Shown here: positions 11,862-53,890 of the stretch, piece after piece
Layout of the letters: every line of letters starts with the position of its first letter
How positions within the stretch are numbered: the first letter of the stretch is position 1
DNA from: Bacteroidia bacterium
GTDB lineage: Bacteria > Bacteroidota > Bacteroidia > CAIKAF01
Assembly: GCA_016742095.1 (NCBI GenBank)
Contig: JACVCJ010000014.1
Span: 17,777-81,776 of the forward strand
Reading direction: 5' to 3'
DNA length: 64,000 bases
Program-made: the position numbers and the translations under genes
The notes under the pieces: generated by a model
The model's database searches: none
What the model was told of the DNA's origin: nothing
Seen by the model: the letters and a program-made list of their open reading frames with translations, nothing else

Positions 11862-12458
11862 TCAGGAGCGGGCAAAGCGGAGCAGGGGTACGATATCGCC
11901 GGCATCAGCAGCCCTCAGGGCATGCAGGTACGCACTGCGGGCAAGACCCTGCCGGGCCAGGTTTCCGCGACCCCAGCTGAACACCGGCTGTCCCCGGAGT
12001 TTGCTGGTGATAATATCGGCCAGCAGGCGGCTATGCCTGCCGTTCCCGTTGCAGAAACAATGTATGCTCACCAGGCGGTGCTTAAAACGCAGTGCAGCCT
12101 CGTCCGGACTGTATACCTGCATCTGCTGCCAGTACAGCGCATCGTCGAGCAGGCATTTCAGTGCGCCGGGTATCTGCCAGCGGTTTATGCCCAGGTTCTT
12201 TTCGCTCTGCCTGAATTCCCCGGCCCAGTTCCACACGTTGCCGAACATCTGCTGATGCACACGGCGTATAAAGGCTTCACTGAATACCTCTGCCGGCCGG
12301 AAAGAACGTCTCAGGGACCAGAGCATGGCCTCTTCGATATTCTGTTGTTCAAACTCGTCCAGTTCGGCATGCGTTTGTATGCCCGGGATCCGTAAACCCT
12401 CTGCCTCGCTTTCGTCCAGCGGCGTTTGTCCCGGAAGATATACAAAGCTTAATCCCAC
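11862..12458 (-). CDS. Fic/Doc-family protein of the 'mobile mystery protein B' type
   Basis: The Fic motif HxFx(D/E)GNGRxxR is present as HCFCNGNGRHSRLL. At ~198 aa, and with an HTH partner gene immediately upstream overlapping by 10 bp, it matches the mobile-mystery A/B pair architecture. Confidence 0.8.
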   Translation of the reverse strand: MGLSFVYLPGQTPLDESEAEGLRIPGIQTHAELDEFEQQNIEEAMLWSLRRSFRPAEVFSEAFIRRVHQQMFGNVWNWAGEFRQSEKNLGINRWQIPGALKCLLDDALYWQQMQVYSPDEAALRFKHRLVSIHCFCNGNGRHSRLLADIITSKLRGQPVFSWGRGNLARQGLARSAYLHALRAADAGDIVPLLRFARS

Positions 12459-12922
12459 AGTATTTTAGGCATTTCGTTCTTGAGCAGGACCGTACGTTCT
12501 TCAATGGCTTTGCGGATGCGTTGTTCGGAGTTTTCCTGGCCTTCGAGCAGCATGGTATGGGAGCTGCGGAGTACAATTTCAGTGGCCAGCTCACGGGCCT
12601 TTTGTTCAATGAGGGCATCGAGGGAGCCGCCGTTAGGTACAAAACCATACACCAGCTGCATATCCAGGGCCCGGGCCGTTTCGCGCAGGGAACGCAGGGT
12701 AATGCTGCCTTCCTGTTCGCGTTTTTCAATGTCCTGCACGCTCTGTTTACTGATGGAGAGTTTGCGCCCCAGTTGTTGCATAGACATGCCCAGGGCCGAA
12801 CGTATGGTACGTACCCAGCCCGAAGCCGGTACCGCCTGCTGCTGTACGGAGGCGAAGGACACCATTTTGTTGTTTAACTGCTGTATCTGTAAGTTTTTGC
12901 GCGACATAATTCCTGTATTCAC
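12449..12922 (-). CDS. HTH (XRE-like) DNA-binding protein of the 'mobile mystery protein A' type
   Basis: The start is a GTG at 12922 (MNTGIMS..), with an alternative ATG at 12907. The HTH segment is SALGMSMQQLGRKLSISKQSVQDIEKRE. At 157 aa it overlaps the Fic gene in an operon-like way. Confidence 0.7.
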   Translation of the reverse strand: MNTGIMSRKNLQIQQLNNKMVSFASVQQQAVPASGWVRTIRSALGMSMQQLGRKLSISKQSVQDIEKREQEGSITLRSLRETARALDMQLVYGFVPNGGSLDALIEQKARELATEIVLRSSHTMLLEGQENSEQRIRKAIEERTVLLKNEMPKILWD

Positions 12923-13075: not shown

Positions 13076-16000
13076 TTAGCGCATCAGGTACATTTTTCCG
13101 AATCCTTTCTTGAAGAAGGAGTCGGCCTCGGTAGCACGACGGTCGATATTTTCGCCGTTGATCTCTGTATAAGCGCGGTACAGGTAAACGCCGGAGGCCA
13201 GTTTGTTGCCGAACTCGTCGGTGCCGTCCCAGGCGTAATCGGTAATGTTGTTGCCGATGTGAATGTTGCCGAGCTCTTCCATCATGATCTCGCGTACGAT
13301 CACCCCGTTGATATTAAAGATCTGTATCTTGAAGAAAGTGGGCAGTTCGCTGCCGGTGAGTGTAAATACAAAGCGGGTAGAGGTGCTGAAGGGGTTGGGG
13401 TAATTGAGGATCTGGGTAATACTCGATTTGTTCACAATGTTGAAGCGGATCCTGTAATCGAAGGTGCCGTCGCCGTTGCCGCTGGCATTATTGGTCTTAT
13501 CGCGGGCGCGCAGCATCAGTTCGTACTGGCCGTCGGCCATGGAGAAATCCGGGCGGAATTCGAGCCGGGCATTGTTCTTGGAATTGGTGGCCGGGTAAAA
13601 ACTCACGTCGGAACCGCTCAGCGGAACGGGCACGATATTCGAACTGCCCGGGTAACGCAGGAAAACCTCGAAGCTCGACGTATCGTTCAGCAGCAGTATG
13701 GGGTTTTCGTCCTTCAGCTGGATCAGGATCACCGGTTTGGCCGATACAATGTCGCCGTCCATGATCCGTACTCCGTCAAAGGTAACGTCCAGCAGGGGAT
13801 TGATCTTGTCTTTATCAGTATAGAAAGGCCGGTCGGCCAGGTTATTGAAATGGTACTGCTCCGTAAAACGGTCGGGCCGGTCCAGCGGGTTGGCCTCGGT
13901 CCAGAGGACGTTCAGGCCCGGGTAATTCATGTTTTCGATCGTAAAAGTGTCCAGCAGGAACTGTCCCACAGTAAGGCCGTTGTACTTTTTGTAGAAATTG
14001 GTAACGGCATTGTTGCTGTTCACGATAAAGTGTTTCACAATAACGGAATCGGTATTGTAATCGCCGATGTTCTCCACGGGCATCACCAGTCGCAGCGTCT
14101 GGCCCTGTGGCAGGGTATCGGCCGCAAAGGAAAAGCCGGAACGTGCCGGGTTCAGCGATATTTCGGGCACGCCTTCGTACAGCACGTGCCAGCGCCGCAG
14201 TTGTGCCGGTGTGCGGATGCTGTCGTCCCGGGTAAAGAAACGCAGTTTCAGGTAAGGGTACTGGCTGGCATTGATGGTGTTGCCCAGGTTGAACACTTCG
14301 CCCGGAACAGGTTGCAGCGCACTGATGAGCGTGGTTTCCACGCCGCCGTTCACCCCGATGATGTCTACGGAAACGCTGTCGAAACTGGGAATTTCGGTAC
14401 TCTGCTGAAAATAGCTCATGTAATCCCAGTTTTTGGCCGGACCGATCAGCGGACTTTCGATATTCCCGAAGATCCAGTCATTTTCCAGGTCCTGGGTAAG
14501 CGTAATGGTAGCGGAAGGACTGTTCCCCACCACTTCGGCGGTAGTGGCCGGGTATCCCTTGCGGGTAAAGAAAATATAGGGCAGGTTTTGTCCGCCGGCG
14601 GCCAGCAGTTGTATGGAATCGGCGCCGAGATTGATAAAAGCATTGAGCTGATCGGGCGTAAACTGGCTGAAGTTGGTGCTCCACATGGTATAGGCCAGTA
14701 TGTAATGCCCGTTGGGAACGGTGTTGTTCAGCAGGTTCTTGAGTTGTTCACGGGAGTTATTATCGCCCTGCAGGTAGATGAAATAAGCTTCCTGGCGGTC
14801 GCGGCAGGGTAGCTGGCACTGGTTGTACTGTCCCAGGTTATAACCGCCGGTACCGGTACAGTTCGTTTTCCAGGGTTCCAGTGTAAGAGGATCGATAATG
14901 GCCACATAGATACCCGGAATGGTATTACAGGCACCATATTCCATCAGTATGCCGTCCATATCGTATTTACACTGTTCGCTCTGTGCCACGCTTACATTAC
15001 CTATGGTAACGCAGCGCAGCTGTTTGCGGTTCTCATTGAATTCGAACAGGCGCTGCGGTTCATTGTAATCGATATACGTATATTTATCGTTCCTGAACTG
15101 CGGAAAATCGGCCTGGCCCCAGCCTCGCTTGTTCACAATGTACTGGAACGAAGAATAGCGCCATTTTCCAAACGTAAGGTTCCCGGTGGTATCCACGCCT
15201 ACGCGCCAGTAAAACACGGTACTGTCGGGCATGTTCAGCTGCGGGTTCCATTGCATTACCCCGCCGGTCTGACTGATGAGCGTGTCTTTTTTCCAGCTGC
15301 TGGTAAAATAGGCATTGGTGTCTATTTCCATGCGGTAATTACGCAGGGGTGCAAAAAGATTCCCCGTTACGGCCTTTATTTTTGTGTTGGGCAGGGGCAC
15401 CACGGCAAATTCCTGCGGGTAAACGGGTATCACTTCGGCAGAGGCGATATTTACCGTTTTTACCACTTTGTTGTTGAACTCGTTCAGTTCTTCCACGAAG
15501 TTGTTCGGGTCCAGCGTAATGGTAAAGATATTGCTGCCCTGGCCGTTCACCGGATCGGTGGCGAACGTAAGCCGGAGCGTATCCGAAAACATCAGGGGCG
15601 GCAGTTTGTAGGCATAAATATCGTTGGGTTTGCCCTGTTTGGGATAATCGCGTATTACCTCGATACGCAGGGAGTCGTTCATGGCGCGGCCGTAGTTGGT
15701 TATGGCTATGGTGATATGAAAAGAATCCTGGTCGGTCGTGATCACCGCCGGACTTACCACCACGCTCTGGTCCGTGATCATGGGGTCGGGCCTGGTATAG
15801 GACATGATCTTCAGCGCCGGGTCGCCGTGGATGGAGAACTCCAGGTAGTTCAGTATGTCGAAAAAGCCGCCGTTCTGTATATACAGCTCATTTACGGACG
15901 CAGTAAGACATTCCCCGATACTTTTGGTATACATATCGCGGGAAACGTTTCGGTACCAGGTACGCGTAATGTTGAATACGGGGTTCTGCAGGCTGTATCC

Positions 16001-18100
16001 CACGGCAGAAAGGAAGGCCACGGAACCTTTTTCGGGTTCCAGCACGAAGCGTTCGCTGATGGTGGGCGTAGCCTGGAACAGGTCGCCCGAGAGGCAGGAG
16101 TTGGCCACGATCACCGGGTAACGCCCGCTGTTGTTGTAATCGGCTGGTTCTTCAATATTGATATCGAAGCCGCTGCCCGAGGCATGTCCGAAGAAGGTCA
16201 TCAGCGCTACGCCGTTATTGATGATCCCCTTGAGGCTGTCGGCCACGGTCTGTGATACCGGAGCATTGGACGATTTTCCGAAGAACAGCGCACGGCCGGC
16301 CATCGCCGAATCCTGCCAGTGCGATTTATAGGTGTCCAGGTACGATTTGAACAGGTTCTGTTCTGCCTGGCTCGATCCGCCCGCAAAATGCAGGGCCTTT
16401 TTCATCCATTCGGCAGGGTGGTTCTGTTCGTTCTGCTGTACCTTCAGCAGGTAATTGCTTACATCGGCCGGGGTACGTGCCGCCAGGCGCCCGATGGGGG
16501 TGTGATGCCTGGGCGGACTGGTATTTTCGTATACATAGTTATTGTCCGTAGGCGGATAGCCCATGGCCGGTATATAGTTCTGCGCGGCTACGGCGGGATT
16601 CAGCCGCACCTGATCGGGGAAATACGATTTGCCGATAATGAATATGGCTTTCGGTTTTATGTTCCACTGCTGCCGGGCATAGTTCAGGAAGCGGTAAATA
16701 CCCAGTGGGTGTCCGTTCATGCCGAACCCGAACTGGTCGTACAGCTCGCGCACGTCCAGAACCAGCGGATTGTAACCGCTCAGGTTGCGGTATGCGGCGT
16801 ATTGCAGGGCCTCGTTCCAGAAAAAGGATGAGGTGATCACCAGGTAATCGCGGTTGGAATACATGGCGCTGAGATCCCGGAATTTGCCCGGCAGCGCCCC
16901 GGCCGAATTCACCGGCTGTATATTGCTCACCTTGATGGTGGCGCTGTCCGACGTAAGAATACATTGCTTGTTGCCGCTGCCGCCGTTGGGTACCACCACC
17001 TGCCAGTTGCCGGAAACGTTCTGCACCTGTATACGTTTTCCGTTGCTTACATCGTACAGGTACACCTGGGAACCGAGGGCGTTAAAATTGCTGATGGACA
17101 GCGTGTATTTGGCCTGCGCCGCATTATTGGGAACATACAGTATGTGCGAACTGCGGTTGCTCAGGTTATAGGTCTGCGGAAGCAGCGCGCGCACATAGCT
17201 GAGGGCATTGCGTGTGGACGGACTGGAAGGTGCCGGGGCAAAACCTACCGAATATACATTGGCGGCGGCCGCTACCGAAGAAGCAGAGGCGTTGAGGTTG
17301 TAGCGGTTAAAGCTGAAATTGTACAGGTTGGAATCGATCTGGGCCGAACCGAACGTAACCTTGTGGTTATGGTCAAAGTTCATCAGGTTGGACGAAGGGT
17401 TCGACGCGCCTGCGGCCCACACGCTCAGGCTGGCCTGGGGCCCCGCAGTGTACATGGTGTTCTTCAGGTTGGCAAAATCGCCTGTCCAGCCCTGGTTAAT
17501 GGTTTGTGCATTGGTGTAGATGGTGGCATAGCCTTCGCCGCTCTGGTAGCGGGCGTCTTTCTGAAAACTGCTGTAAAAAGCGCCCTCGTTGTATGTGGAA
17601 CGGTAGCCCTGTTCCACCAGCGCCCAGTAAAAAGGAGAGGTGTTCCAGGCGCTGAAATTATTATCGAGCTCCGTTACGAAACGCAGCCCGAAACTGGTGC
17701 CGGTCGTAAGAAAATAAGAGGCCGTATCGGTGTACAGGTTCACTTTTTTGTTGCCCTGCCATCCCGGCTGAAAATACAGTACGGAGTCGGGCGTACCGTC
17801 GTTGCTGATGCCGAAAAAGTCGATATGATCGCCGGGATCGAACTGTCCGTCGCCCTGTCCGGCTATGTAAACGGTCTGTTGCTGTCCGCGGAAATACAGC
17901 TGAAAATACCTCGGGTCCGAACTGTTCACCGGGAAACCCGAAGCCGCGAGGGCCGCGTAGGTAATGCGGTGCATGCCTGTTTCGGTCACCTGGATCTTGT
18001 AGTAGCTCTGGTCGTACCGGATCCATTCGTTACCATATACCTGGCTGCGTGCCGCAAGAGGAAGCAGAAAAAAAAGTATATAGATCAGGTGCTTTTTCAT
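13076..18100 (-). CDS. porU: PorU-like T9SS C25-family (gingipain-like) peptidase / sortase carrying a C-terminal T9SS sorting domain
   Basis: The 1674-aa product has a signal peptide, then GNEWIRYDQSYYKIQV.., the characteristic PorU N-terminal region. A C25-peptidase-like region follows (..YLVITSSFFWNEALQYAAYRNLSGYNPLVLDVRELYDQFG..IFIIGKSY..). The last ~80 aa (..ILNYPNPFSTSTRFVFTL..GVYLYRAYTEING..) look like a T9SS C-terminal domain. A PorV-like gene is immediately adjacent. Confidence 0.6.
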   Translation of the reverse strand: MKKHLIYILFFLLPLAARSQVYGNEWIRYDQSYYKIQVTETGMHRITYAALAASGFPVNSSDPRYFQLYFRGQQQTVYIAGQGDGQFDPGDHIDFFGISNDGTPDSVLYFQPGWQGNKKVNLYTDTASYFLTTGTSFGLRFVTELDNNFSAWNTSPFYWALVEQGYRSTYNEGAFYSSFQKDARYQSGEGYATIYTNAQTINQGWTGDFANLKNTMYTAGPQASLSVWAAGASNPSSNLMNFDHNHKVTFGSAQIDSNLYNFSFNRYNLNASASSVAAAANVYSVGFAPAPSSPSTRNALSYVRALLPQTYNLSNRSSHILYVPNNAAQAKYTLSISNFNALGSQVYLYDVSNGKRIQVQNVSGNWQVVVPNGGSGNKQCILTSDSATIKVSNIQPVNSAGALPGKFRDLSAMYSNRDYLVITSSFFWNEALQYAAYRNLSGYNPLVLDVRELYDQFGFGMNGHPLGIYRFLNYARQQWNIKPKAIFIIGKSYFPDQVRLNPAVAAQNYIPAMGYPPTDNNYVYENTSPPRHHTPIGRLAARTPADVSNYLLKVQQNEQNHPAEWMKKALHFAGGSSQAEQNLFKSYLDTYKSHWQDSAMAGRALFFGKSSNAPVSQTVADSLKGIINNGVALMTFFGHASGSGFDINIEEPADYNNSGRYPVIVANSCLSGDLFQATPTISERFVLEPEKGSVAFLSAVGYSLQNPVFNITRTWYRNVSRDMYTKSIGECLTASVNELYIQNGGFFDILNYLEFSIHGDPALKIMSYTRPDPMITDQSVVVSPAVITTDQDSFHITIAITNYGRAMNDSLRIEVIRDYPKQGKPNDIYAYKLPPLMFSDTLRLTFATDPVNGQGSNIFTITLDPNNFVEELNEFNNKVVKTVNIASAEVIPVYPQEFAVVPLPNTKIKAVTGNLFAPLRNYRMEIDTNAYFTSSWKKDTLISQTGGVMQWNPQLNMPDSTVFYWRVGVDTTGNLTFGKWRYSSFQYIVNKRGWGQADFPQFRNDKYTYIDYNEPQRLFEFNENRKQLRCVTIGNVSVAQSEQCKYDMDGILMEYGACNTIPGIYVAIIDPLTLEPWKTNCTGTGGYNLGQYNQCQLPCRDRQEAYFIYLQGDNNSREQLKNLLNNTVPNGHYILAYTMWSTNFSQFTPDQLNAFINLGADSIQLLAAGGQNLPYIFFTRKGYPATTAEVVGNSPSATITLTQDLENDWIFGNIESPLIGPAKNWDYMSYFQQSTEIPSFDSVSVDIIGVNGGVETTLISALQPVPGEVFNLGNTINASQYPYLKLRFFTRDDSIRTPAQLRRWHVLYEGVPEISLNPARSGFSFAADTLPQGQTLRLVMPVENIGDYNTDSVIVKHFIVNSNNAVTNFYKKYNGLTVGQFLLDTFTIENMNYPGLNVLWTEANPLDRPDRFTEQYHFNNLADRPFYTDKDKINPLLDVTFDGVRIMDGDIVSAKPVILIQLKDENPILLLNDTSSFEVFLRYPGSSNIVPVPLSGSDVSFYPATNSKNNARLEFRPDFSMADGQYELMLRARDKTNNASGNGDGTFDYRIRFNIVNKSSITQILNYPNPFSTSTRFVFTLTGSELPTFFKIQIFNINGVIVREIMMEELGNIHIGNNITDYAWDGTDEFGNKLASGVYLYRAYTEINGENIDRRATEADSFFKKGFGKMYLMR

Positions 18101-19200
18101 TCGCTTTTCTTTTTGCCGGATTTAAGATTGAGTCCCACGCGCAACGAGAATACGTGCGAAAACAAAAAGGTACTCTGGTTGCCGAGGGAGGCCAGGGCGT
18201 AATCCACGTAAATGGTCTTTACCCGGAAACCGGCCCCGATATTGGGCTTCACCAGCCATATATCCTTGCTGCCGTCGCCTTTGCTGCGCTGGAACTGGCC
18301 TACGCCGCCCCGGATGAACACAATGTCTTTGTACCCGAATTCCACGGCGATACGCGGGTCCATACTGAGCGGTTTCCCCGCTACCAGTACGTTACGCTTG
18401 CCGTCGGTGGTAATGATCCAGTCGAGCGAGGGTCGTACAAAATACCGCTGTTTTTTATCGATCCACTGCTGGTACGAAGCTCCCAGCACGATCTGCGGCA
18501 GCGCCAGTTCCGAGGATTTACGCAGTATCTCGTTGCCGGTAAGGGCAAAGGTCTTTTCAAACGTTTCGGTGTTGTAGCTGAAGTTGGTTATCGTAGTGGT
18601 AATATCGCGCAGCAGCAGTCCTGCCCGCAGGTTCCGGTACTGGTACTGTACGCCCAGGTCCACGCCAAAGCCCCAGCCTTTACCAAATTCCCCGATGTTG
18701 CGGTGCAGCACCTTCATACTGCCGCCCACGCTGAGGCCTTTTACAGGCATCTGCCGGGCAAAGGATACAAAGAATGCATAATCGGCCACGGAAAACGCGG
18801 TGATACGGTCGTAACGGATACGTCCGTCGCTGTCGATCAGTTCCAGGGTGTTCGGGATATTGTCCACCCCGCTGCGGATCACCCCGAAACCCAGTCCGTT
18901 CTTTTCTCCGGCCTTGATGCCGATGGCCCCGAAGTCATATTTTACGATGCCGCCGAAGTGTTCATTGTGCATCAGGGAAACGTCCAGCGTACTTTTGAGC
19001 CGGGTAAGGCCCGCCGGGTTCCAGTAAATGGAAGAAGCGTCCTCGGATATGGACGTATAGGCATTGCTCATGCCCAGTGCGCGTGCATTCACCCCAATAT
19101 CGAGATAGGCATTGGTGTAGGTGTAGGTCTGGGCGCGACAAGCCGCCGCCATAAAAAAAGCGGCAAGCACAGGGTATATGTTAATGCAGATGAATTTCAC
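18097..19200 (-). CDS. porV: PorV-like (LptO) T9SS outer-membrane beta-barrel protein, FadL-like family
   Basis: The 367-aa product has a signal peptide and a conserved ..NARALGMSNAYTSISEDASSIYWNPAGL.. segment, and ends in aromatic-rich beta-strands. It overlaps the start of the PorU-like gene by 4 bp. Confidence 0.55.
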   Translation of the reverse strand: MKFICINIYPVLAAFFMAAACRAQTYTYTNAYLDIGVNARALGMSNAYTSISEDASSIYWNPAGLTRLKSTLDVSLMHNEHFGGIVKYDFGAIGIKAGEKNGLGFGVIRSGVDNIPNTLELIDSDGRIRYDRITAFSVADYAFFVSFARQMPVKGLSVGGSMKVLHRNIGEFGKGWGFGVDLGVQYQYRNLRAGLLLRDITTTITNFSYNTETFEKTFALTGNEILRKSSELALPQIVLGASYQQWIDKKQRYFVRPSLDWIITTDGKRNVLVAGKPLSMDPRIAVEFGYKDIVFIRGGVGQFQRSKGDGSKDIWLVKPNIGAGFRVKTIYVDYALASLGNQSTFLFSHVFSLRVGLNLKSGKKKSE

Positions 19201-19272: not shown

Positions 19273-19668
19273 TTAACTTTTGTATGCCGGGGAACGGGGG
19301 ATCTTCCGGACGGAATGCCGGTACAGGTAACTGAAGAACAGGATGAGCCCGGCCTGCAGCACCAGGCGCAGGAAGGCGGCCCAGAGGGGCATAACATCGC
19401 TCCACAGGTGCCATATGTGCAGAGGCAGGAAGGCCAGCATCAGGCACAGGGTAAAGAACGCAGCCCGGTGGCGGGTGGCCGGCAGCAGGAAAAGGATACC
19501 CGTAAGTATCTCTGCCACACCGGAAATATAGATCCAGCAGAGCATTCCGGATAGAAAACCCTCGGAGATCTGCAGGTAAAAACCCGGTTTCAGAAAGTGC
19601 ATAGCTCCGCCCGCGATAAAAAACAGGCCGCAGACAAGACAGAGTACACGGTAAACGGAAGCGCGCAT
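19273..19668 (-). CDS. small integral membrane protein (4 TM, DoxX-like)
   Basis: The internal ATG at 19668 of track ORF 19273..19950 gives a ~131-aa protein with four hydrophobic helices. The long N-terminal extension in the track is not convincing. Confidence 0.4.
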   Translation of the reverse strand: MRASVYRVLCLVCGLFFIAGGAMHFLKPGFYLQISEGFLSGMLCWIYISGVAEILTGILFLLPATRHRAAFFTLCLMLAFLPLHIWHLWSDVMPLWAAFLRLVLQAGLILFFSYLYRHSVRKIPRSPAYKS

Positions 19669-19737
19669 CACTGGATACAGGTATTTATCCTGTAGTATAC
19701 GTAAAAAACGACCCGCAGGTTCCGGGAATACGGGAAC

Positions 19738-20892
19738 ATGTGTATCTTCGTCCCTATGCCGCGCCTTCATCTTGTATCGTTCAATATTCCGTATCCGCCG
19801 GACCAGGGCGGACTGGTGGACGTATATGCCAAAATATGTGCGCTGAAGGAGGCCGGGGCCGAAGTGGTGCTGCACTGCTACGAGTACAACCGGGCACACG
19901 CACCGGAACTGGAAAAATACTGTGCGGAAGTGCATTATTACCCGCGGCATAAGAACCTGTTCTCCCTGTTTTCCCTGCTGCCTTTCATCGTTTTCAGCCG
20001 CCGTTCGGCCACGCTGGAAAAATACCTGTCAGAAGCTAAAAATGATGAGCCGGTATTGCTCGAAGGGTTGCATACGGCCTATTACCTGGGCAAGAAAGCT
20101 CTGCAGGGTAAAAAAGTGTGGCTGCGTACGCACAATGTAGAGCACCGCTATTATGCCGGACTGGCCGATGCAGAACCCGGACTGCTGAAAAAGTGGTTCT
20201 TCCGTCTCGAAGCCTTTAAGCTGAAACGTTTCGAACCGATACTTTCGGCCGCGGACGGACTTTTCTGTATCTCGGCCGCCGATGAACAGCATTTTCGTAT
20301 ACATAACAAAAACACCAGCCTGGTTTCTGCATTCCACCTGGAGAACGAGGTGCGCTCTCAGCCCGGGCTGGGCAATTTTGCCATGTACCACGGCAGCCTC
20401 GACGTTCCCGAAAATTACCGGGCGGCGCTCTGGCTGGTGAACGAGGTCTTTGCTGAAAGTACCGTACCCCTGCACATTGTGGGCAATCGTGCTCCCGCGG
20501 CTCTGCGGGCGGCCATCGATAAACATCCGCATATACGGCTTATGGAGAACGCCGGTCCGCAGCAGATACAGGAAATGATGACGGAAGCCCAGGTGCATGT
20601 GCTGCCCACTTTCCAGGCTACGGGTATTAAACTGAAGTTGTTGCACGCACTGTTCGCGGGGCGCTTCTGCATTGTAAATCCGCCTATGGTGCTGGGCACC
20701 GGGCTGGAAGAATATTGCACCCTTGCCGGCGATGCGGCGGAAATGCGTTACCAGGTTGAAAAATACATGCAACTGCCGTTTACGGAAAGCGATCTGCAGG
20801 CACGTAAAAAACTCAATGAAAGTATATTTGCCAACCGCGTCGGCGCGCGTACGGTCTTAGCGGGTCTGGGCCTCGCTCAGGATGCCGTTTGA
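19738..20892 (+). CDS. glycosyltransferase (GT-B fold, family 1/4-like)
   Basis: The 384-aa product has a GT-B architecture. An alternative start at 19756 is possible. Confidence 0.65.
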   Translation: MCIFVPMPRLHLVSFNIPYPPDQGGLVDVYAKICALKEAGAEVVLHCYEYNRAHAPELEKYCAEVHYYPRHKNLFSLFSLLPFIVFSRRSATLEKYLSEAKNDEPVLLEGLHTAYYLGKKALQGKKVWLRTHNVEHRYYAGLADAEPGLLKKWFFRLEAFKLKRFEPILSAADGLFCISAADEQHFRIHNKNTSLVSAFHLENEVRSQPGLGNFAMYHGSLDVPENYRAALWLVNEVFAESTVPLHIVGNRAPAALRAAIDKHPHIRLMENAGPQQIQEMMTEAQVHVLPTFQATGIKLKLLHALFAGRFCIVNPPMVLGTGLEEYCTLAGDAAEMRYQVEKYMQLPFTESDLQARKKLNESIFANRVGARTVLAGLGLAQDAV

Positions 20893-21753: not shown

Positions 21754-24700
21754 ATGCGTATGAATGTTCGTAAGGTGTGGTTCTCCCTGTTGCTCATCAC
21801 TCTCTCTGCCGCCGTACAGCCTTTGCTGGCACAGCGGAGCCGTATACATACCGAGCCCGATAAATTGTATAAGGATGCCGTGGAATTGTACCAGAAAGAG
21901 AAATATGCGGCCGCCTATACCATGTTCGGCGATTTTATGGAGAACGGACGTTACGGGCAGCGCCAGAGCCTGGTAGATGCCGAGTATTTCCGTGCGGTCT
22001 GTGCTACCGAACTTTTTTACAACAATGCCGAGGGACTGCTTACGGATTTTATCCGCAGTCACCCGGAGAGCCCGCTTTCTTCCAATGCGTATTTTCACCT
22101 GGGTAAAGTGGCTTTCCGTGCCCGGGATTATAAAAAGGCCTCGCAGTATTTCGACCAGGCCGATCCCAATACGCTGAGCCGCGCCGAATGGTACGAATAC
22201 TACTACAAATCGGGCTACAGCGCCTTCGAAAATAAAGATTACAAAAAGGCCCTGAACTATTTTGTAAAGATCAAGGATGCCGAAAGCGTGTACCGCGTGC
22301 CTGCCACGTATTACTATGCGCATATCCGTTACGTGGAGCAGAACTGGAACGAAGCGCTGAAAGCCTTTAAGTCCATCGAGAACGAGAAGGCCTTCCGCGG
22401 ACTGGTGCCCTATTACATTGCCCAGATCTACTATATGCAGAAAAAGTACGAGGACGTGATCAGCTATGCACGTCCCCTGGCCGATACCGTAAAGGGCAAG
22501 AACAGCGCCAATGTGTACCGCATCCTGGCCGAAAGCTATTACAATACCGGACGTTTTAAGGAAAGCCTGGAGTTTTATGATAAATACGCCGCGCTCGATG
22601 AGCTGGACCGCCTGGGCAATTACCGCTACGGTACCGCCCTGTATAAAAGCGGTTCCTACGAGGCCGCCTATGAACGCCTGAAACTGACCGTGGCCGAGGA
22701 AGACAGTATTTCACAGACGGCCTATTACCTGCTGGCCGACTGCGCCTACCGTACCGGGGACAAACGGAAGGCCGCCGATGCCTTTAAAATGGCGTACAAG
22801 CTCAATTTCGACAAAAATATGGCCGAAGATGCCCTCTTCAACTTTGCCAAACTGAGCTACGAGACCGACTACGATCCGTACAACGAGGCCATCCGCGCGT
22901 TGAAGGACTACCTGGACAAATACCCGGAGAGCAAACGGGCCGATGAGGCCTATTCCTTCCTGGCCGAAGTATTCATGACCGTGAAAAGTTATAAGGACGC
23001 CCTGGAGACCCTGGACAAGATCAAACGCAAGGACCCGCGCCTGAAGCAGGCCCGCCAGCGTGTGGCCTTCCTGTATGGCACGCAGTTCTTCGAAGAAGGG
23101 AATTACCCCGAGGCCATCAATTATTTTAACCAGGCTTCCGCTTCGGGACTTAATGACGTGGTAACGGCCCAGAGTATCTTCTGGACGGCAGAATCGTACT
23201 ACCGTACCGGCCGCATGCGCGATGCCGAGGAAGGTTTTTCCGAGTTCCTGAATACCCCGGGCGCCATGAGCAGCGGTCTGCGCGACGACGCCTACTACAA
23301 CCTGGGCTACATCTATTTCAAGGATAAAAAGTACCCGGCTGCCGGTGTGGAATTCCGCAAGTATGCCGATAACCGCAAGGCAAGCAACCCACAGCTGGCC
23401 GCCGACGCCTATAACCGGGCGGGCGACTGCTACTATGCCCAGCGTGAATGGAGCAAGGCCCTGGAATACTACGATAAGGCCTATGCCATTAAAAAGGCCG
23501 ATCCGGATTATTCCCTGCTGCAGAAAGCCACCATACTGGGCCTGCAGAAGAAACACGGCGAAAAGATGACCCTGCTTACCAAACTGCGTACCGATTATCC
23601 CAATTCGGTGTATACCGCCGAAGCCATGTACGAAAGCGGGGTAGCGCTGCAATCCCAGGGTAAAAAGAACGAGGCTGTTACGTATTTCGAACAGGTGATA
23701 CAAAAATACCCGAACGGCCCCTTTGCCAAAAAGGCCTACCTGAAACTGGGCCTGCACTACTACAACCAGGACCAGGACGAAAAAGCCCTGAGCTACTACA
23801 AACCCGTGCTGGAGCGCTTCCCGGGTACGCCCGAAGCCGACGAGGCCATTAAATACGTAAAGTTCATTTACATAGACGAAGGCCGCATCGACGAATTCAC
23901 CGACTTTATGCGCAGCGTAAGCGGGGTGAATTATACCGAATCTTCACTCGATTCCGTGGCCTTCCGGGCCGGGGAGAACAAATACCTGGCAGGCGACTGC
24001 GCCGGTTCCATCGTGAACTTTAACCAGTACATCACCAAATTCCCGGCCGGTACTTTCATTAAAAATGCCCATTACTACCGTGCCGAATGCCTGCGCGAAC
24101 AGAAAAAGGAAAAAGAGGCCCTGGCCGATTATGAGTACCTGATCGAAAACACACCGAACGATTACCTGCTGCTGTCGCTGGAACGCGCTTCAGACATCGC
24201 CTTTAAAGAAAAGGACTGGGAACGGGTACGTAAATATGCCTACGAGAACGAACGCCTGTCCGAAAAGGCGAATGTACGCCAGACCAGCATAGAACGTATA
24301 CTGCTGGCCGAATACGAACTGGCCAACTATCCTGCGGCCGCCATCTATGCAGGCAAAGTGTACGAGAGCGATAAATCGGCCAAAGAAGTAAAAGAATACG
24401 CAGCCCTGCTGGCCGCCCGCAGTGAAACAAAGGCAGGTAATGCCACCGCCGCCGAGATCTGGTGGAAAAAACTACAGGGACAGTCGAGCGCCATCGGTGC
24501 CGAAGCCAAATACAATATCTACACGGCCATGTTTTCCCGGGGCGAATACAAACAAACGGAGAAAAAGATCCTGGCCGATGTGAACAGCCTTTCCAACTAC
24601 GGCCTGTGGATGGGTAAATCCTTTATTATCCTGGGTGATGTATATGCTAAACTCGAGAATTTTGACCAGAGCATAGCCACCCTGCAATCGGTGATCGACA

Positions 24701-24822
24701 ATGCCGAAGACGCCGCCGTAGTGGACGAAGCCCGCCTGAAACTGGAAGAAGTGAAAACGGCACAGCGGATCAGGAACCAGCCGGCCAACAATAATTTTGA
24801 ATTTGACTTAAACGGAAATTAA
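21754..24822 (+). CDS. large secreted tetratricopeptide-repeat (TPR) protein
   Basis: The 1022-aa product has a signal peptide (..LSAAVQPLLAQ) and TPR-like A/Y/L periodicity throughout (AYYNLGYIYFKDKKYPAAGVEFRKY.., EAMYESGVALQSQGKKNEAVTYFEQVIQKYP..). Confidence 0.8.
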   Translation: MRMNVRKVWFSLLLITLSAAVQPLLAQRSRIHTEPDKLYKDAVELYQKEKYAAAYTMFGDFMENGRYGQRQSLVDAEYFRAVCATELFYNNAEGLLTDFIRSHPESPLSSNAYFHLGKVAFRARDYKKASQYFDQADPNTLSRAEWYEYYYKSGYSAFENKDYKKALNYFVKIKDAESVYRVPATYYYAHIRYVEQNWNEALKAFKSIENEKAFRGLVPYYIAQIYYMQKKYEDVISYARPLADTVKGKNSANVYRILAESYYNTGRFKESLEFYDKYAALDELDRLGNYRYGTALYKSGSYEAAYERLKLTVAEEDSISQTAYYLLADCAYRTGDKRKAADAFKMAYKLNFDKNMAEDALFNFAKLSYETDYDPYNEAIRALKDYLDKYPESKRADEAYSFLAEVFMTVKSYKDALETLDKIKRKDPRLKQARQRVAFLYGTQFFEEGNYPEAINYFNQASASGLNDVVTAQSIFWTAESYYRTGRMRDAEEGFSEFLNTPGAMSSGLRDDAYYNLGYIYFKDKKYPAAGVEFRKYADNRKASNPQLAADAYNRAGDCYYAQREWSKALEYYDKAYAIKKADPDYSLLQKATILGLQKKHGEKMTLLTKLRTDYPNSVYTAEAMYESGVALQSQGKKNEAVTYFEQVIQKYPNGPFAKKAYLKLGLHYYNQDQDEKALSYYKPVLERFPGTPEADEAIKYVKFIYIDEGRIDEFTDFMRSVSGVNYTESSLDSVAFRAGENKYLAGDCAGSIVNFNQYITKFPAGTFIKNAHYYRAECLREQKKEKEALADYEYLIENTPNDYLLLSLERASDIAFKEKDWERVRKYAYENERLSEKANVRQTSIERILLAEYELANYPAAAIYAGKVYESDKSAKEVKEYAALLAARSETKAGNATAAEIWWKKLQGQSSAIGAEAKYNIYTAMFSRGEYKQTEKKILADVNSLSNYGLWMGKSFIILGDVYAKLENFDQSIATLQSVIDNAEDAAVVDEARLKLEEVKTAQRIRNQPANNNFEFDLNGN

Positions 24823-29979: not shown

Positions 29980-32652
29980 GTGAAAAAAAGCATAACCATT
30001 ACCGTGGCGTGCCTTGTTGTTTTATTTACAAAGCTGGATACTCAGGCACAATGTCTGAGCGGGAACTGCTTTGTGAATATTACACCGAGTGCCACTACGA
30101 TTTGTGAAGGACAGTCCGTTTCCCTGTCCGTAGATACCGGATCTGCCCTTTTGTTCAACAATTTTAATTCGCAGACACTGGGTGCGGGCTGGACCGTGAA
30201 CCCGGGTACGGTTGTTAATTACAACAATCCCTGCGGCCCCGGCATGGACGGTTCCCCACACGTATGGTTCGGTGCGCAGGCCCCGCAGGGAACGCGTTTC
30301 CTGGCAACGGTGGATTTTAACACGACCGCCGGCGGATTCATCCAGTTCGATTTTAAAATGGCCACCCAGGGCAATGGTTCGCCCTGCGAAGGCCCCGACG
30401 AAGTAGACGAAGGCGTATCGCTGCAGTATTCAAACGACTACGGCGCCACCTGGATCGATATTACCTATTTTTCTCCGGACGGTACCTTTTACCCGTCAAA
30501 TCCCTGTCCGAACTGCAGCGGGGGCGCATTTGTAGCGGGTAATCCGTTTCTGAGCTGGGCAACGTACACGTTCAATTTCCCGGCAGCCGCACAGACGCCC
30601 TGTACACGTTTTCGCTGGACACAGCCCTACAATACCTCGGCCACCAATGACCACTGGGGTATCGACAACGTACTTATTTATGCCAATATTCCGCCGGTAC
30701 CCGGTTTTGTAAACACTGCCACCTGGCTCGATACAGGCGATACCATTACCGGCCCGCGTGTGGTTTCCCCGACCGTTACCACTTCGTATATTGCTAAATT
30801 TGAGACCGGTGCCGGTACCTGCTACGATACGGTGACCATCAACGTAAATCCCAAGCCGGTGGCCAGCCTTACCGGTCCCAGCAATCTCTGCGTAAATACC
30901 CCTTATGTCTTTTCCGGGGCGGGTTCTACGGTATCTTCCGGTACCATTAATAATTACCGTTTTATTATGAATCCCAACGGTGCGACCAACCAGGTGGGGC
31001 CCAACAGTAATCTCAGTTTCACCTATCCCGTGAACGTACCTACTTTCCAGGCTTCCCTGGTGGTGACCACGGCGGCCGGCTGTTCAGATACGGCCTACCT
31101 GCCCATTACCGTTTCGCCTAAACCAGTGCCGCTGTTTACCATGCAGCCCGCCGTGTGCGAGGGTACCCTGGTGAACCTCGACGCTTCGGCGACCAATATT
31201 GCCGCTCCCGGTGTGCTCGGCTATTTTGTATGGGATACCGATGGCGATAATATCAGCGATGACTCGCTGGCCGCTAACCAGAATAGTTTCCTGGCTACAG
31301 GCCCTGGCACACACAATGTGAAACTTACGGTATACAACAGCGTGGGTTGTGCCACTTCGGTAACGCATCCCATTACCATACATCCGCAGCCGGTGGCCGA
31401 TTTTACCGCTGTACCGGGCTGTATAGGCGCTGCTGCCCAGATCACCAATAACAACTTGCAGACCGGAGTGAACTATAACTGGGATTTCGGCGACGGTACC
31501 ACACTGCTATATAACGGTGCTGCCACCGGCCATATCTACACGGCCGCAGGCTCGTACACCATCGAACTTGTGGCCGATCAGCAGGGCCTCTGTTCCGATA
31601 CCATGACGCAGACCATCAGCGTGCAGAACACCGTGGATGCGGCTTTCAGCTTTAACGACCCCTGTGACCTGAACGGTATTTTTACCGATCTTTCTACCGT
31701 GCCGCCTACTTCGGCAGGTACTATAAACAGCTGGTACTGGGACTTTGCCGACGGAAATTCGTCTGCTGTTCAGAACCCGGTGAACCTGTATACCGATAAC
31801 GGCGATTACAATGTAGTACTGATCGTGGGGACCACGGAAGGCTGCTTTGACACACTGATACAGACCGTACCACGCTATGCGAAACCGGTAGCTGACTTTG
31901 CCTTTTCGGAAGTATGCCTGGGACAGGTGTCCAAACTGGCCAATACTTCTACGGTGGCCAGCGGAACCCTGGCGCAGTACAGCTGGGACCTGGGTAACGG
32001 AGTTACGCTCAGCACACCCGACGGCGATCATTCCTACGATAATGCCGGCGCGTACCAGGTAACCCTGATCGTGGTAAGCGACAGAGGCTGCAGCGATACC
32101 GTAAGCCACAGTGTGAACGTATGGCCGGTGCCGACGGCCGATTTTACCACGTTGCCCCTGGGACAGACCACCATGCTGGAACCTACGGTTGAACTCATCG
32201 ACCAGTCTTCCGGAGCCACCGCCTGGGAGTGGTACATAAACAACGTGGGTACCTTCAACGGCCCGAACCCGGTATTCGAGTTCCCGGCCAGCGGTTCCTA
32301 TTCTATTGTACTCACCGTATCCAACCAGTACGGCTGCGAAGACCAGAAACAATCCGATTATATTGTGCTGCCTTCCTATACGTTCTACGTGCCCAACAGC
32401 TTTACGCCGAATGAAGGCGACCTGTTCAATCCCGTATTCCAGGTATACAGCAGAGGCTTGTCTACCATCGATTTCAGAGTGTTCAGCCGCTGGGGCGACC
32501 AGGTTTTCCAGAGCAGTGATCCCGAATTTATCTGGGACGGCACTTTCAAAGGGAAGGACCTGCCCCCGGATGCCTATGCCTACCGTTGCGTAACACGGGA
32601 TGTAGAAGGAAATGAGTACATTTATTACGGACATATTAATCTTATTCGCTGA
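29980..32652 (+). CDS. PKD-repeat cell-surface protein with a T9SS type-B (gliding-motility-associated) C-terminal sorting domain
   Basis: The 890-aa product starts at a GTG and has a signal peptide, several PKD-like ~85-aa repeats (..WDFGDGT.., ..WDFADGNSS.., ..WDLGNGVTLSTPDGDHSY..), and a C-terminus YTFYVPNSFTPNEGDLFNPVF...YRCVTRDVEGNEYIYYGHINLIR that matches the type-B sorting-domain pattern. Confidence 0.8.
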   Translation: MKKSITITVACLVVLFTKLDTQAQCLSGNCFVNITPSATTICEGQSVSLSVDTGSALLFNNFNSQTLGAGWTVNPGTVVNYNNPCGPGMDGSPHVWFGAQAPQGTRFLATVDFNTTAGGFIQFDFKMATQGNGSPCEGPDEVDEGVSLQYSNDYGATWIDITYFSPDGTFYPSNPCPNCSGGAFVAGNPFLSWATYTFNFPAAAQTPCTRFRWTQPYNTSATNDHWGIDNVLIYANIPPVPGFVNTATWLDTGDTITGPRVVSPTVTTSYIAKFETGAGTCYDTVTINVNPKPVASLTGPSNLCVNTPYVFSGAGSTVSSGTINNYRFIMNPNGATNQVGPNSNLSFTYPVNVPTFQASLVVTTAAGCSDTAYLPITVSPKPVPLFTMQPAVCEGTLVNLDASATNIAAPGVLGYFVWDTDGDNISDDSLAANQNSFLATGPGTHNVKLTVYNSVGCATSVTHPITIHPQPVADFTAVPGCIGAAAQITNNNLQTGVNYNWDFGDGTTLLYNGAATGHIYTAAGSYTIELVADQQGLCSDTMTQTISVQNTVDAAFSFNDPCDLNGIFTDLSTVPPTSAGTINSWYWDFADGNSSAVQNPVNLYTDNGDYNVVLIVGTTEGCFDTLIQTVPRYAKPVADFAFSEVCLGQVSKLANTSTVASGTLAQYSWDLGNGVTLSTPDGDHSYDNAGAYQVTLIVVSDRGCSDTVSHSVNVWPVPTADFTTLPLGQTTMLEPTVELIDQSSGATAWEWYINNVGTFNGPNPVFEFPASGSYSIVLTVSNQYGCEDQKQSDYIVLPSYTFYVPNSFTPNEGDLFNPVFQVYSRGLSTIDFRVFSRWGDQVFQSSDPEFIWDGTFKGKDLPPDAYAYRCVTRDVEGNEYIYYGHINLIR

Positions 32653-32695: not shown

Positions 32696-34693
32696 ATGAA
32701 CATTGACCTGCCAGAATTGGCTTTCGACAGAAAAGGCATCAGTCTCAAAGAATTAAAAAAACTGTATAAGCATCTTCTTGCACCCCGTCTTATCGAGGAG
32801 AAGATGCTTATTCTGTTACGTCAGGGCCGTATTTCCAAATGGTTCAGCGGGATCGGCCAGGAAGCCATTTCTGTAGGTACCACACTGGCGCTCGATCCCG
32901 ATGAATACATTCTGCCTATGCACCGCAACCTGGGCATGTTCACTTCGCGCGGGATCCCGTACGAAGATCTTTTTAAACAGTTCCAGGGCAAGGAAGGCGG
33001 TTTTACCAAGGGCCGTGACCGTAGTTTTCACTTCGGTACCAATGATTACCACCTGGTGGGGATGATCTCGCACCTGGGCCCGCAGCTGGGCGTAGCCGAC
33101 GGTATTGCCCTGGCCACCAGACTGAAAAAAGAAAACAAAGTTACCCTTGTGGTTACCGGTGACGGGGGTACCAGTGAAGGCGATTTTCACGAAAGCCTGA
33201 ACGTGGCTGCCGTGTGGGACCTGCCCGTGATCTTCGTGATCGAGAACAACGGCTATGGACTCAGCACCCCGAGCAACGAACAGTTCCGTTGCGACCTGCT
33301 GGCCGACCGGGCCATCGGTTACGGAATGGAAGCGGTGACCATCGACGGTAACAATATCCTGGAAGTATACAACACGACGCGCCGCCTGGCCGAAGATCTG
33401 CGCCAGAATCCGCGTCCGGTGATCCTGGAATGCATCACGTTCCGTATGCGCGGCCACGAAGAAGCCAGCGGTACCAGGTACGTACCCCAGTATCTTTTTG
33501 ATGCCTGGGCCGCTAAAGACCCGATCACGAATTACGAACAATACCTGCTTGCAGAAGGCATACTCACGGCCGATGAGGTTATGGAGATCCGGGCCGAGAT
33601 CAAAAAAGAGATCAGCGACTCGGTAGAAAAAGCCTTTGCCGTGCCTGCCGTTACCGCCAGCGACGAGACCGAACTGAACGATGTGTACGCTGCGTATACA
33701 CAACAGATAACCCCGCCCATTGCACGTACACGTGAAATGCGCTTTGTGGACGCCGTTTCCGACGGACTCCGTCAGGCCATGTACAAACACGACAACCTGG
33801 TGCTGATGGGGCAGGATATTGCCGAATACGGCGGTGTATTTAAAGTAACGGAAGGTTTCGTGGAAGAATTCGGGAAGGACCGTGTACGCAATACACCGCT
33901 CTGCGAAAGCGCCATTGTGGGTACCGCACTGGGCCTTTCCATCAGGAAAATGAAAGCCATGGTAGAGATGCAGTTCGCCGATTTTGTGACCTGCGGTTTC
34001 AACCAGATCGTGAATAACCTGGCAAAATCGCACTACCGCTGGGGACAGAACGCCGATGTGGTGGTACGCATGCCGGCCGGTGCCGGTGTGGCTGCGGGCC
34101 CCTTCCACAGCCAGAGCAACGAAGCCTGGTTTTTCCACACACCGGGCCTCAAAGTGTTCTATCCTTCTACGGCTGAAGATGCCAAAGGTATGCTGATCGC
34201 GGCTTTTGAAGATCCGAACCCCGTTGTGTTCTTCGAACATAAGGCCCTGTACCGCAGCGTGAGCGGCCAGGTGCCCGAGGGCTATTACACCGTGGAGATC
34301 GGTAAGGCCCGCCGGGTAACGGAAGGCAGCCGCGCCACCATTGTAACCTATGGTTTCGGAGTACACTGGGCCCAGGAAGAACTGGAAAAGAACGGCATCG
34401 GGGACGTAGAGATCATCGACCTGCGCACCCTGCTGCCCTGGGACAAGGAAACCGTTGCCGAAAGCGTACGCAGGACCGGCCGTGTGCTGGTACTGCACGA
34501 AGATACCGTTACAGGCGGTATCGGCGGCGAAATTGCGGCATGGATAGCCGAAAATTGTTTTGAATACCTGGATGCCCCGGTAAAACGACTGGCATCACTG
34601 GATACGCCTGTGCCCTTTGCACCGAACCTGGAATGGAATTTCCTGCCCCGGAACCGAATTGTGCATGTATTGAACGAACTATTAAATTACTAA
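32696..34693 (+). CDS. thiamine-diphosphate-dependent 2-oxoacid (branched-chain/pyruvate-type) dehydrogenase E1 component, fused alpha-beta subunits
   Basis: The 665-aa product has an E1-alpha ThDP-binding fold (..[38 protein letters not shown]..) followed by an E1-beta transketolase-like Pyr domain and C-terminal domain. Confidence 0.85.
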
Positions 34694-45457: not shown

Positions 45458-45541
45458 AAGCGATATGTAACTGGAAACAAAAATAACTTTTTTGGCGGGT
45501 TTTGCCAACCGGAAGGCGAAAAGCTGCCTTTCGGCGGCAGA

Positions 45542-53242: not shown

Positions 53243-53788
53243 CTAATTTAAATGAGGCATATCCGTAAAATTGCTCCAGATGGCGTATTCCTTGTCTTTG
53301 CGCAGCATTTTTTTCCAGTGCTGTTCGTAGCCTTCGGTATGCAGTACCTCGTTGGCGCTGGTGGTACCGGCCACCCAGGATTTATTGGCAAATTCGGCAG
53401 ACAGCTGATCGGGGTCCCAGCCCGAATAGCCGGCAAAGAACTTCACCTTATCGGGTTGGGCTTCCTTATTGTTGAGCAGTTCCTTCAGTACATCAAATTC
53501 GCCGCCCCAGTAAAGTCCGGGCAGTATTTCCACGCTGTTGGGCAGCAGATCGCCCAGGCTGTGTACATAGAACAGGTTTTCATTGCCTACCGGTCCGCCG
53601 TAATAGATACTGGCTTCAAACAGCACGTCCTTGATCAGCTCGTGCAGTTTCAGGTCGGTTTCGCGGTTGATGATAAACCCGAAGGAACCTTTATCGTTGT
53701 GTTCGGTAAGCAGTACCACGGCCTGCCTGAAGTAGGGATCATCCAAAAAAGGTGTGGCCGATATGATGTTTCCTTTCGCAATTTCCAT
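53243..53788 (-). CDS. YqgE/AlgH-family protein (UPF0301)
   Basis: It is taken as the C-terminal 181 codons of the long antisense ORF 53243..56140, starting at the ATG at 53788: MEIAKGNIISATPFLDDPYFRQAVVLLTEHNDKGSFGFIINR.. matches the AlgH family. The upstream 780 codons are rejected as antisense to the MORN-repeat gene. Confidence 0.8.
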   Translation of the reverse strand: MEIAKGNIISATPFLDDPYFRQAVVLLTEHNDKGSFGFIINRETDLKLHELIKDVLFEASIYYGGPVGNENLFYVHSLGDLLPNSVEILPGLYWGGEFDVLKELLNNKEAQPDKVKFFAGYSGWDPDQLSAEFANKSWVAGTTSANEVLHTEGYEQHWKKMLRKDKEYAIWSNFTDMPHLN

Positions 53789-53890
53789 AAATTCGCAATT
53801 TTTAACAGGGTCGCTATACAATTTTAACGATTTTGCCCGTACAAGCTTATGTGTATGCACAGAAAATTTGAACTTTTTTTCCGCAATAGT

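Follow-up and report, generated by a model that had tools for sequence, protein, structure and literature searches.

The canonical PorU-PorV pair forms part of the T9SS (type IX secretion system) attachment complex, and is known from Porphyromonas gingivalis (PG0026/PG0027) and Flavobacterium johnsoniae (Fjoh_1556/1555), from the curated models NF033707 and NF033710, and from PDB entries 6za2 and 6h3i. A stretch of 64,000 nucleotides from a Bacteroidia bacterium (contig JACVCJ010000014.1; hereafter, the window) carries on its minus strand a related pair that departs from this pattern, with a gene for a PorV-type barrel of 367 amino acids (aa) lying upstream of one for a C25 peptidase of 1674 aa. 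The question raised by this locus is what such a pair, with the order of its genes reversed and its peptidase greatly enlarged, might be. A first-pass annotation had left a choice between the bona fide sortase with extra domains and a C25 cargo protease hitch-hiking next to porV. Neither alternative quite fits the comparison with curated family models, which identify the pair as an ordinary member of the NCBIfam PorU2/PorV2 paralogous families. This genome is exceptional neither in the reversed order nor in the extra length, both being hallmarks of these families.

Both open reading frames (ORFs) described in the first-pass annotation are present, together with their overlap. The upstream gene, porV2 (18097..19200, minus strand), has a GTG start and encodes a FadL-like beta-barrel that belongs to the PorV/PorQ family of the outer membrane, while porU2 (13076..18100, minus strand) has an ATG start and encodes a PorU-related C25 cysteine peptidase. 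The TGA stop of porV2 and the ATG start of porU2 share 4 bp (ATGA; junction sequence ...GCGAATGAAAAAG... / GAATGAAAAAG), an arrangement also seen at one other locus (L002), and this overlap suggests translational coupling of the two genes. Scans for promoters and terminators at the locus returned counts at chance level. Judging from their conservation, porV2 and porU2 are real genes, since full-length homologues occur in at least 563 GTDB species in a scan of one genome per species.

Assignment to the PorU2 and PorV2 Families

The large protein scores 674.7 bits against NF052324 (PorU_rel_Nterm, "putative type IX secretion system sortase PorU2"; cutoff 450, E = 2e-202), with residues 6-877 aligned to positions 5-879 of a model of 879 positions. 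The canonical PorU model, NF033707, gives 193.9 bits against a cutoff of 420 and aligns over model positions 5-733 of 1095 only. The comparison of PorU-family and generic C25 models proposed in the first-pass annotation is thereby answered: the protein passes a dedicated PorU2 model, and hence does not score merely as a generic C25 peptidase. The small protein matches NF052325 (PorVQ2, "putative type IX sorting system protein PorV2") over its full length with 414.7 bits (cutoff 325, E = 2.6e-124). It also exceeds the cutoff of the broad PorV/PorQ subfamily model (NF033709, 98.3 vs. 90 bits), but falls under those of canonical PorV (NF033710, 30.7 vs. 250) and PorQ (NF033711, 55.2 vs. 220). PorV2 has a signal peptide followed by a near-invariant Gln and is a barrel of the PorV fold. 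Its match to the PorQ model (55 bits) is stronger than that to the PorV model (31 bits), and its sequence sits between those of PorV and PorQ. A homologue of PorU2 in Marinigracilibium pacificum (P0050) is already named PorU2 in RefSeq, whereas a look-up of the exact window sequence of PorU2 returned no record.

These scores set the window pair apart both from the classical sortase pair and from a generic C25 protease with a chance neighbor. The low PorU score and a partner under both the PorV and the PorQ cutoffs argue against a bona fide sortase with extra domains. The idea of a hitch-hiking cargo protease is at odds with the passing of both the PorU2 and the PorV2 models, with a gene order kept in 76 of 84 loci, with the PorU-type N-terminus and C-terminal domain (CTD) of the large protein, and with its lack of Propeptide_C25. 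With respect to the NF052324 and NF052325 families, the window locus is no different from other members, exceeding both cutoffs widely. With respect to the canonical pair, it is set apart by scores under both cutoffs, by the V-then-U order and by some 660 aa of extra domains, among them one resembling FAM3/ILEI.

The C-terminal architecture of PorU2 lies outside the curated definition of the family, because the NF052324 model spans residues 1-879 only. Several variant proteins (P0057, P0058, P0052, and P0054) combine a PorU2-type N-terminus, a C25 domain and a CARDB domain with other C-terminal halves, which in P0057, for instance, contain PKD and a type B CHU_C domain and in others lack the D4/D5 domains described below. 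Such variant halves may be the reason why the NCBIfam model stops at residue 879.

A PorU-Type N-Terminal Region and an Intact Catalytic Dyad

The first-pass annotation had recognized a PorU-like N-terminus, a C25 core and a T9SS CTD in the large protein, and all three elements are borne out. A predicted signal peptide (residues 1-19) is followed by Gln20 and then by the PorU-type N-terminal region (16847..18040, minus strand; residues 21-418). The motif GNEWIRYDQSYYKIQV occupies residues 23-38, and both Gln20 and Trp26 are invariant across 30 aligned members of the family. The hidden Markov model (HMM) of this region recognizes the canonical PorU-like proteins P0062-P0071 with E-values of 1e-9 to 1e-22. 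As single sequences, PorU2 and PorV2 have no match among PDB sequences, and their PDB relatives emerged from profile searches. Compared with the PDB, the profile of the PorU2 family has its top match in PorU of P. gingivalis (6za2, E = 1.6e-19). PorU aligns from its residue 40, once over the N-terminal region and the C25 domain and a second time over the last immunoglobulin-like (Ig) domain and the CTD. Next come the gingipains R and K, with E-values of about 1e-6.

The Peptidase C25 catalytic domain (15809..16846, minus strand; residues 419-764) matches PF01364 with an E-value of 1e-56. The catalytic dyad, whose presence the first-pass annotation had singled out for checking, consists of His639 (codon 16184-16186) and Cys669 (codon 16094-16096), both codons being confirmed by translation. 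The two residues are invariant in the 30 family members, within the motifs FFGHxS and NxC. In the profile alignment, FFGHAS of PorU2 corresponds to GHGS of RgpB and GHGG of PorU, and NSC to VAC and ATC, respectively, so that the dyad aligns with His211/Cys244 of RgpB and with the catalytic Cys of PorU. Furthermore, conserved residues are found along the whole length of PorU2 in 30-45 homologues, at identities down to 26 %. A Pfam scan of PorU2 found no match to Propeptide_C25 (PF08126). With C25 cargo proteases such as the gingipains (RgpB, 1cvr; Kgp, 4rbm), PorU2 shares the C25 fold, the aligned His and Cys and a presumed dependence on the T9SS, but it is only weakly similar to them, has no Propeptide_C25, has PorU-type ends and is accompanied by a conserved barrel partner. 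From canonical PorU it retains the N-terminal region, the C25 domain with its dyad, the penultimate Ig domain and a long CTD of the PorU type.

This CTD (13079..13417, minus strand; residues ~1562-1674) is detected by the type A model TIGR04183 at residues 1567-1646, with 23 bits, exactly the cutoff. With an HMM built on the PorU2 CTD, the CTDs of canonical PorU proteins reach 53-73 bits, whereas ordinary cargo CTDs encoded at the same loci do not exceed 14 bits. The length of the domain, about 113 aa, likewise resembles that of the uncleaved PorU CTD, reported as 105-108 aa (PMC11285876). The CTDs of PorU and PorZ are reported to remain uncleaved and to be bound to PorV and PorQ, respectively (PMC10202324, PMC11285876). 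By profile score and length, the PorU2 CTD is hence of the PorU type, and not of the cargo type.

The Extra Residues Form Discrete Domains

The first-pass annotation had noted about 400 extra residues and a middle region rich in Asn, Ser, and Thr. The net gain of 400 aa holds, but the composition of these residues resembles that of the rest of PorU2, and they belong to a block of discrete folded domains placed after the peptidase. This block begins with a CARDB-like beta-sandwich (15464..15742, minus strand; residues 787-879), which matches Pfam CARDB with 27.6 bits (cutoff 22.7). An AlphaFold2 model of residues 878-1674, computed from 45 sequences with a mean predicted local distance difference test (pLDDT) score of 88.9, resolves six further domains, namely D1 to D5 and the CTD. 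D1 (15110..15442, minus strand; ~887-997) is a beta-sandwich whose region HMM matches PorU2-type proteins only. D2 (14480..15109, minus strand; ~998-1207) is an alpha/beta domain with six Cys, also specific to PorU2, and is modeled with the fold of FAM3, ILEI and the stem of POMGnT1. The interval 13805..14479 (minus strand) encodes two more domains specific to PorU2: the beta-sandwich D3 (~1208-1312) and, after it, D4 (~1313-1432), in which the CARDB-like beta-sandwich occurs for a second time. D5 (13430..13804, minus strand; ~1433-1557) is an Ig-like domain ahead of the CTD that PorU has as well.

According to region-by-region HMMs, three parts of PorU2 have counterparts in the canonical PorU-like proteins P0062-P0071, namely residues 21-418 at the N-terminus, the C25 domain and the CTD, and the first CARDB domain and residues 887-1432 have no match there. 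The net difference of 400 aa is the sum of about 660 aa of domains found only in PorU2, minus a shorter linker in the canonical proteins, minus some 140 N-terminal residues that P0062-P0071 possess and PorU2 does not, an extension that P. gingivalis PorU lacks as well. Used as a query against 1.84 billion representative proteins in 50 % identity clusters, residues 887-1432 retrieve at least 611 clusters when E <= 1e-30 is required and 1229 when the limit is relaxed to E <= 1e-10, and the full-length matches always place the D1-D4 block at residues ~870-1470 of proteins of 1630-1750 aa. On this evidence, the D1-D4 block is a signature of PorU2.

The assignment of D2 draws on its model, which displays the beta-beta-alpha FAM3 fold, and, with less weight, on sequence: at the aligned position, the homologues P0043 (36.7 bits) and P0044 (42.0 bits) pass the gathering threshold of Pfam ILEI (PF15711, 27 bits), and two other homologues have sub-threshold matches. 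For a profile of D2 alone, the five best PDB matches include FAM3C, FAM3A and POMGnT1, with E-values of 0.5-1.2. The FAM3/ILEI/POMGnT1 stem ("GG") domain family also includes carbohydrate-binding modules of phage tails, and proteins with this fold (POMGnT1, FAM3 proteins and these phage modules) use it to bind sugars, N-acetylglucosamine (GlcNAc) among them (PMC9802357, PMC9437275). Glycan binding by D2 is therefore plausible from its predicted fold. No earlier report of a FAM3/ILEI domain in a T9SS component was found in a literature that excluded most subscription-journal papers. What appears to be new here is the parsing of the PorU2-specific block into domains, one of them FAM3/ILEI-like, and the recognition of the CTD as PorU-type.

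Gene Order, Neighborhood, and Distribution

The first-pass annotation was right in stating that described systems run from porU to porV and that their PorU is shorter. In control metagenome loci with the canonical genes (L085, L086, and the contig of P0066), a gldJ-like gene is followed by porU (1243-1250 aa) and then by porV (388-395 aa, matching Pfam PorV). Order and length are hence unusual against the canonical pair, as had been claimed, but they are not unusual within the PorU2 family. A protein search yielded about 56 full-length homologues, mostly of ~1640-1750 aa, and tblastn established the V2-then-U2 order in 76 of 84 loci, of which 73 have a PorV2 homologue immediately upstream of PorU2 and in its orientation, and three have a more complex layout. 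Clustering of the ORFs in the flanks of these loci identified PorU2 (84 loci) and PorV2 (76 loci) as the only conserved genes, with no third conserved partner; the next cluster, tyrosyl-tRNA synthetase (33 loci), was considered as a partner and rejected as lineage synteny. Since no other gene is conserved across the 84 loci, V2 and U2 constitute a two-gene unit.

Within the GTDB species scan, the closest relative of PorU2, with 96 % identity, is encoded by a metagenome-assembled genome (MAG) labeled Flavobacteriales bacterium Poolcontrole_22. Other carriers belong largely to the Chitinophagales, the Flavobacteriales (e.g., Crocinitomicaceae and Fluviicola), the Sphingobacteriales, the Cytophagales and some Bacteroidales. 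Three MAGs with the pair (L005, L006, and L027) are labeled "Candidatus Competibacteraceae," a gammaproteobacterial family, and are probably mislabeled or mis-binned Bacteroidota contigs. Loci from Ferruginibacter and Bacteroidota MAGs (L053, L080, and L082) carry a second, divergent PorU2 paralogue, 27-31 % identical to the query, in the layout U2a - V2 - U2b. On the canonical side, a JGI metagenome contig (L003, 9597-17237) bears, beside a porP/sprF gene, a tandem of two C25 genes of the canonical-PorU-like kind, whose products (1251 and 1268 aa) share ~40 % identity.

A Model for PorV2-PorU2 Function

Taken together, these observations are probably best explained by a translationally coupled porV2-porU2 operon encoding a PorU-like peptidase or transpeptidase that would be held at the surface by PorV2 and act on T9SS cargo, beside a canonical PorU/PorV pair encoded elsewhere. 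In this model, both proteins would be exported by Sec, and the Gln that follows their signal peptides (the invariant Gln20 in PorU2, a near-invariant residue in PorV2) would fit the N-terminal pyroglutamate habit of the Bacteroidota. PorU2 would then use its CTD to pass the outer membrane via the T9SS, and this CTD would stay uncleaved and dock on its cognate barrel, PorV2, as PorU does on PorV and PorZ on PorQ (PMC10202324). The enzyme would thereby be displayed on a beta-sandwich stalk at the cell surface, where it could cleave a subset of T9SS cargo and perhaps transfer it to an acceptor, with the FAM3-like D2 possibly contributing to the binding of an acceptor glycan or of a substrate that is glycosylated. 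Most likely, PorV2-PorU2 would work alongside the canonical pair. The proposed arrangement resembles the PorZ-PorQ half of the attachment complex, in that a surface protein with an uncleaved CTD would sit on a cognate barrel of the PorV family. PorZ presents a glycan (A-type lipopolysaccharide, A-LPS) to PorU, and the FAM3-like domain of PorU2 could conceivably echo that role. PorZ is built of beta-propellers and is non-catalytic, whereas PorU2 has a C25 dyad, and no propeller is predicted in its modeled residues 878-1674.

Several observations weigh against this model. The sortase or peptidase role of PorU2 is attributed from homology alone, and a search for literature on the PorU2/PorV2 family found no paper, its name matches being artefacts (e.g., "PorU" followed by a superscript reference 2). 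PorV2 is not found within ~3-6 kb upstream of PorU2 in 4 of the 82 loci having enough upstream sequence. No canonical porU, porV, porQ, or porZ is found in the 64-kb window or in any flank, and tblastn with canonical PorU and PorV on 88 loci and the window located neither near PorU2. Furthermore, D2 of the window protein resembles the FAM3/ILEI/POMGnT1 stem domain in fold but has no match of its own to PF15711, and the "YDD" stretch of FAM3 aligns with PorU2 residues that are not conserved. Of the sugar-binding residues of POMGnT1 that were considered (Arg129, Asp179, and Arg207), Asp179 probably falls, by its position, within this stretch, and its lack of conservation in PorU2 makes glycan binding by D2 uncertain.

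The main rival explanation holds that PorU2 is itself cargo, a surface or secreted C25 protease or adhesin with a lectin-like domain that would act on external substrates, PorV2 being its dedicated shuttle or anchor in the manner of the PorP/SprF-like barrels that serve adjacent type B cargo. Cognate pairs of cargo and barrel genes are indeed established for type B substrates (PMC12618676), a carbohydrate-binding-type fold joined to several Ig and CARDB domains is typical of adhesins and gingipain-like proteases, and the occurrence of two PorU2 paralogues around one PorV2 in some Ferruginibacter loci is an expansion of a more effector-like kind. The N-terminal region and the CTD are nonetheless specifically PorU-like, the propeptide domain is missing, and the architecture is very uniform over more than 600 clusters, which is unusual for effectors; NCBI curators, moreover, have modeled the protein as a sortase paralogue. 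With evidence on both sides, we regard a cargo role for PorU2 as rather unlikely. A similarly doubtful standing is given to an extension of the sortase model in which PorV2-PorU2 would be a self-contained second attachment machine, combining the catalytic head of PorU with an acceptor-recognition module of its own (the FAM3/POMGnT1-stem-like domain) and linking a dedicated subset of cargo to a surface glycan different from that used by canonical PorU. Having its own acceptor-recognition module, PorU2 would therefore need neither PorZ nor PorQ.

It is less probable still that PorV2-PorU2 has replaced the canonical proteins as the sole sortase and shuttle pair of the organism, a reading that corresponds to the bona fide sortase with extra domains of the first-pass annotation. 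The dyad, the PorU-type ends and the PorV-fold partner that such a role would call for are all there, and the window has no canonical porU or porV, but this absence means little because 64 kb covers a small part of the genome. The "2" in the family names, the existence of HMMs for PorU2 and PorV2 in their own right and the poor match to the canonical models point instead to a paralogue, canonical PorU is a general T9SS component according to reviews, and PorV2 falls far under the PorV model, PorV having a conserved task in docking at the SprA/Sov translocon. That PorU2 is a decaying or inactive duplicate without an enzymatic role is scarcely credible, given the intact ORF of 1674 aa, the invariant dyad and the conservation along the entire protein in the aligned homologues.

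Models of T9SS attachment rest on one PorU/PorV/PorQ/PorZ complex from a few model organisms, while PorU2/PorV2 is a large paralogous family that databases label only as "putative." If PorU2 were a second sortase, carrying a glycan-type domain of its own, these bacteria would have two routes for sorting secreted proteins to the surface, with a bearing on the prediction of which enzymes remain cell-bound and which are released. For the window locus itself, the main gain is the removal of a puzzle, as its gene order and length turn out to be normal for the family.

Other Genes in the Window

The genes around the pair offer several minor observations. Upstream of porV2, a 225-aa ORF (19273-19950, minus strand) probably contains a true gene of only ~127-130 aa for a MauE/DoxX-like membrane protein, which is called at that length in three relatives (L084, L087, and L088) and is not kept beside the V2-U2 pair in more distant loci. 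Between porU2 and a DUF349 gene lies a "mobile mystery protein A/B" pair (11862-12922, minus strand), consisting of a helix-turn-helix (HTH) antitoxin-like protein (TIGR02612) and a Fic-like protein (TIGR02613). It seems to be a recently inserted toxin-antitoxin-like cassette, because a relative whose PorU2 is 87 % identical (L084) does not have it at the same position.

Farther away, a 1022-aa tetratricopeptide repeat (TPR) protein (21754-24822, plus strand) was considered as a candidate PorW/SprE and rejected, its 73 bits against a cutoff of 250 being judged generic TPR similarity; it has a strong YbgF/CpoB-type repeat signal and is syntenic in two relatives (L084 and L087). An 890-aa protein encoded at 29980-32652 (plus strand) is a T9SS cargo, matching with 41.5 bits (cutoff 35) the model for C-terminal sorting domains of type B (TIGR04131), and the organism therefore has a T9SS. 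A 796-aa ORF (53849-56239, plus strand) has LIC20035-family adhesin-like repeats, with 190.5 bits under a cutoff of 250. Antisense to it runs a 965-aa ORF (53243-56140, minus strand), which is probably an over-extension, because only its C-terminal ~180 residues (783-965; the 3' end, ~53243-53800) match YqgE/AlgH. Lastly, fused E1 alpha and beta subunits of 2-oxoacid dehydrogenase are encoded twice, by genes for 665 aa (32696-34693, plus strand) and 828 aa (43022-45508, minus strand).

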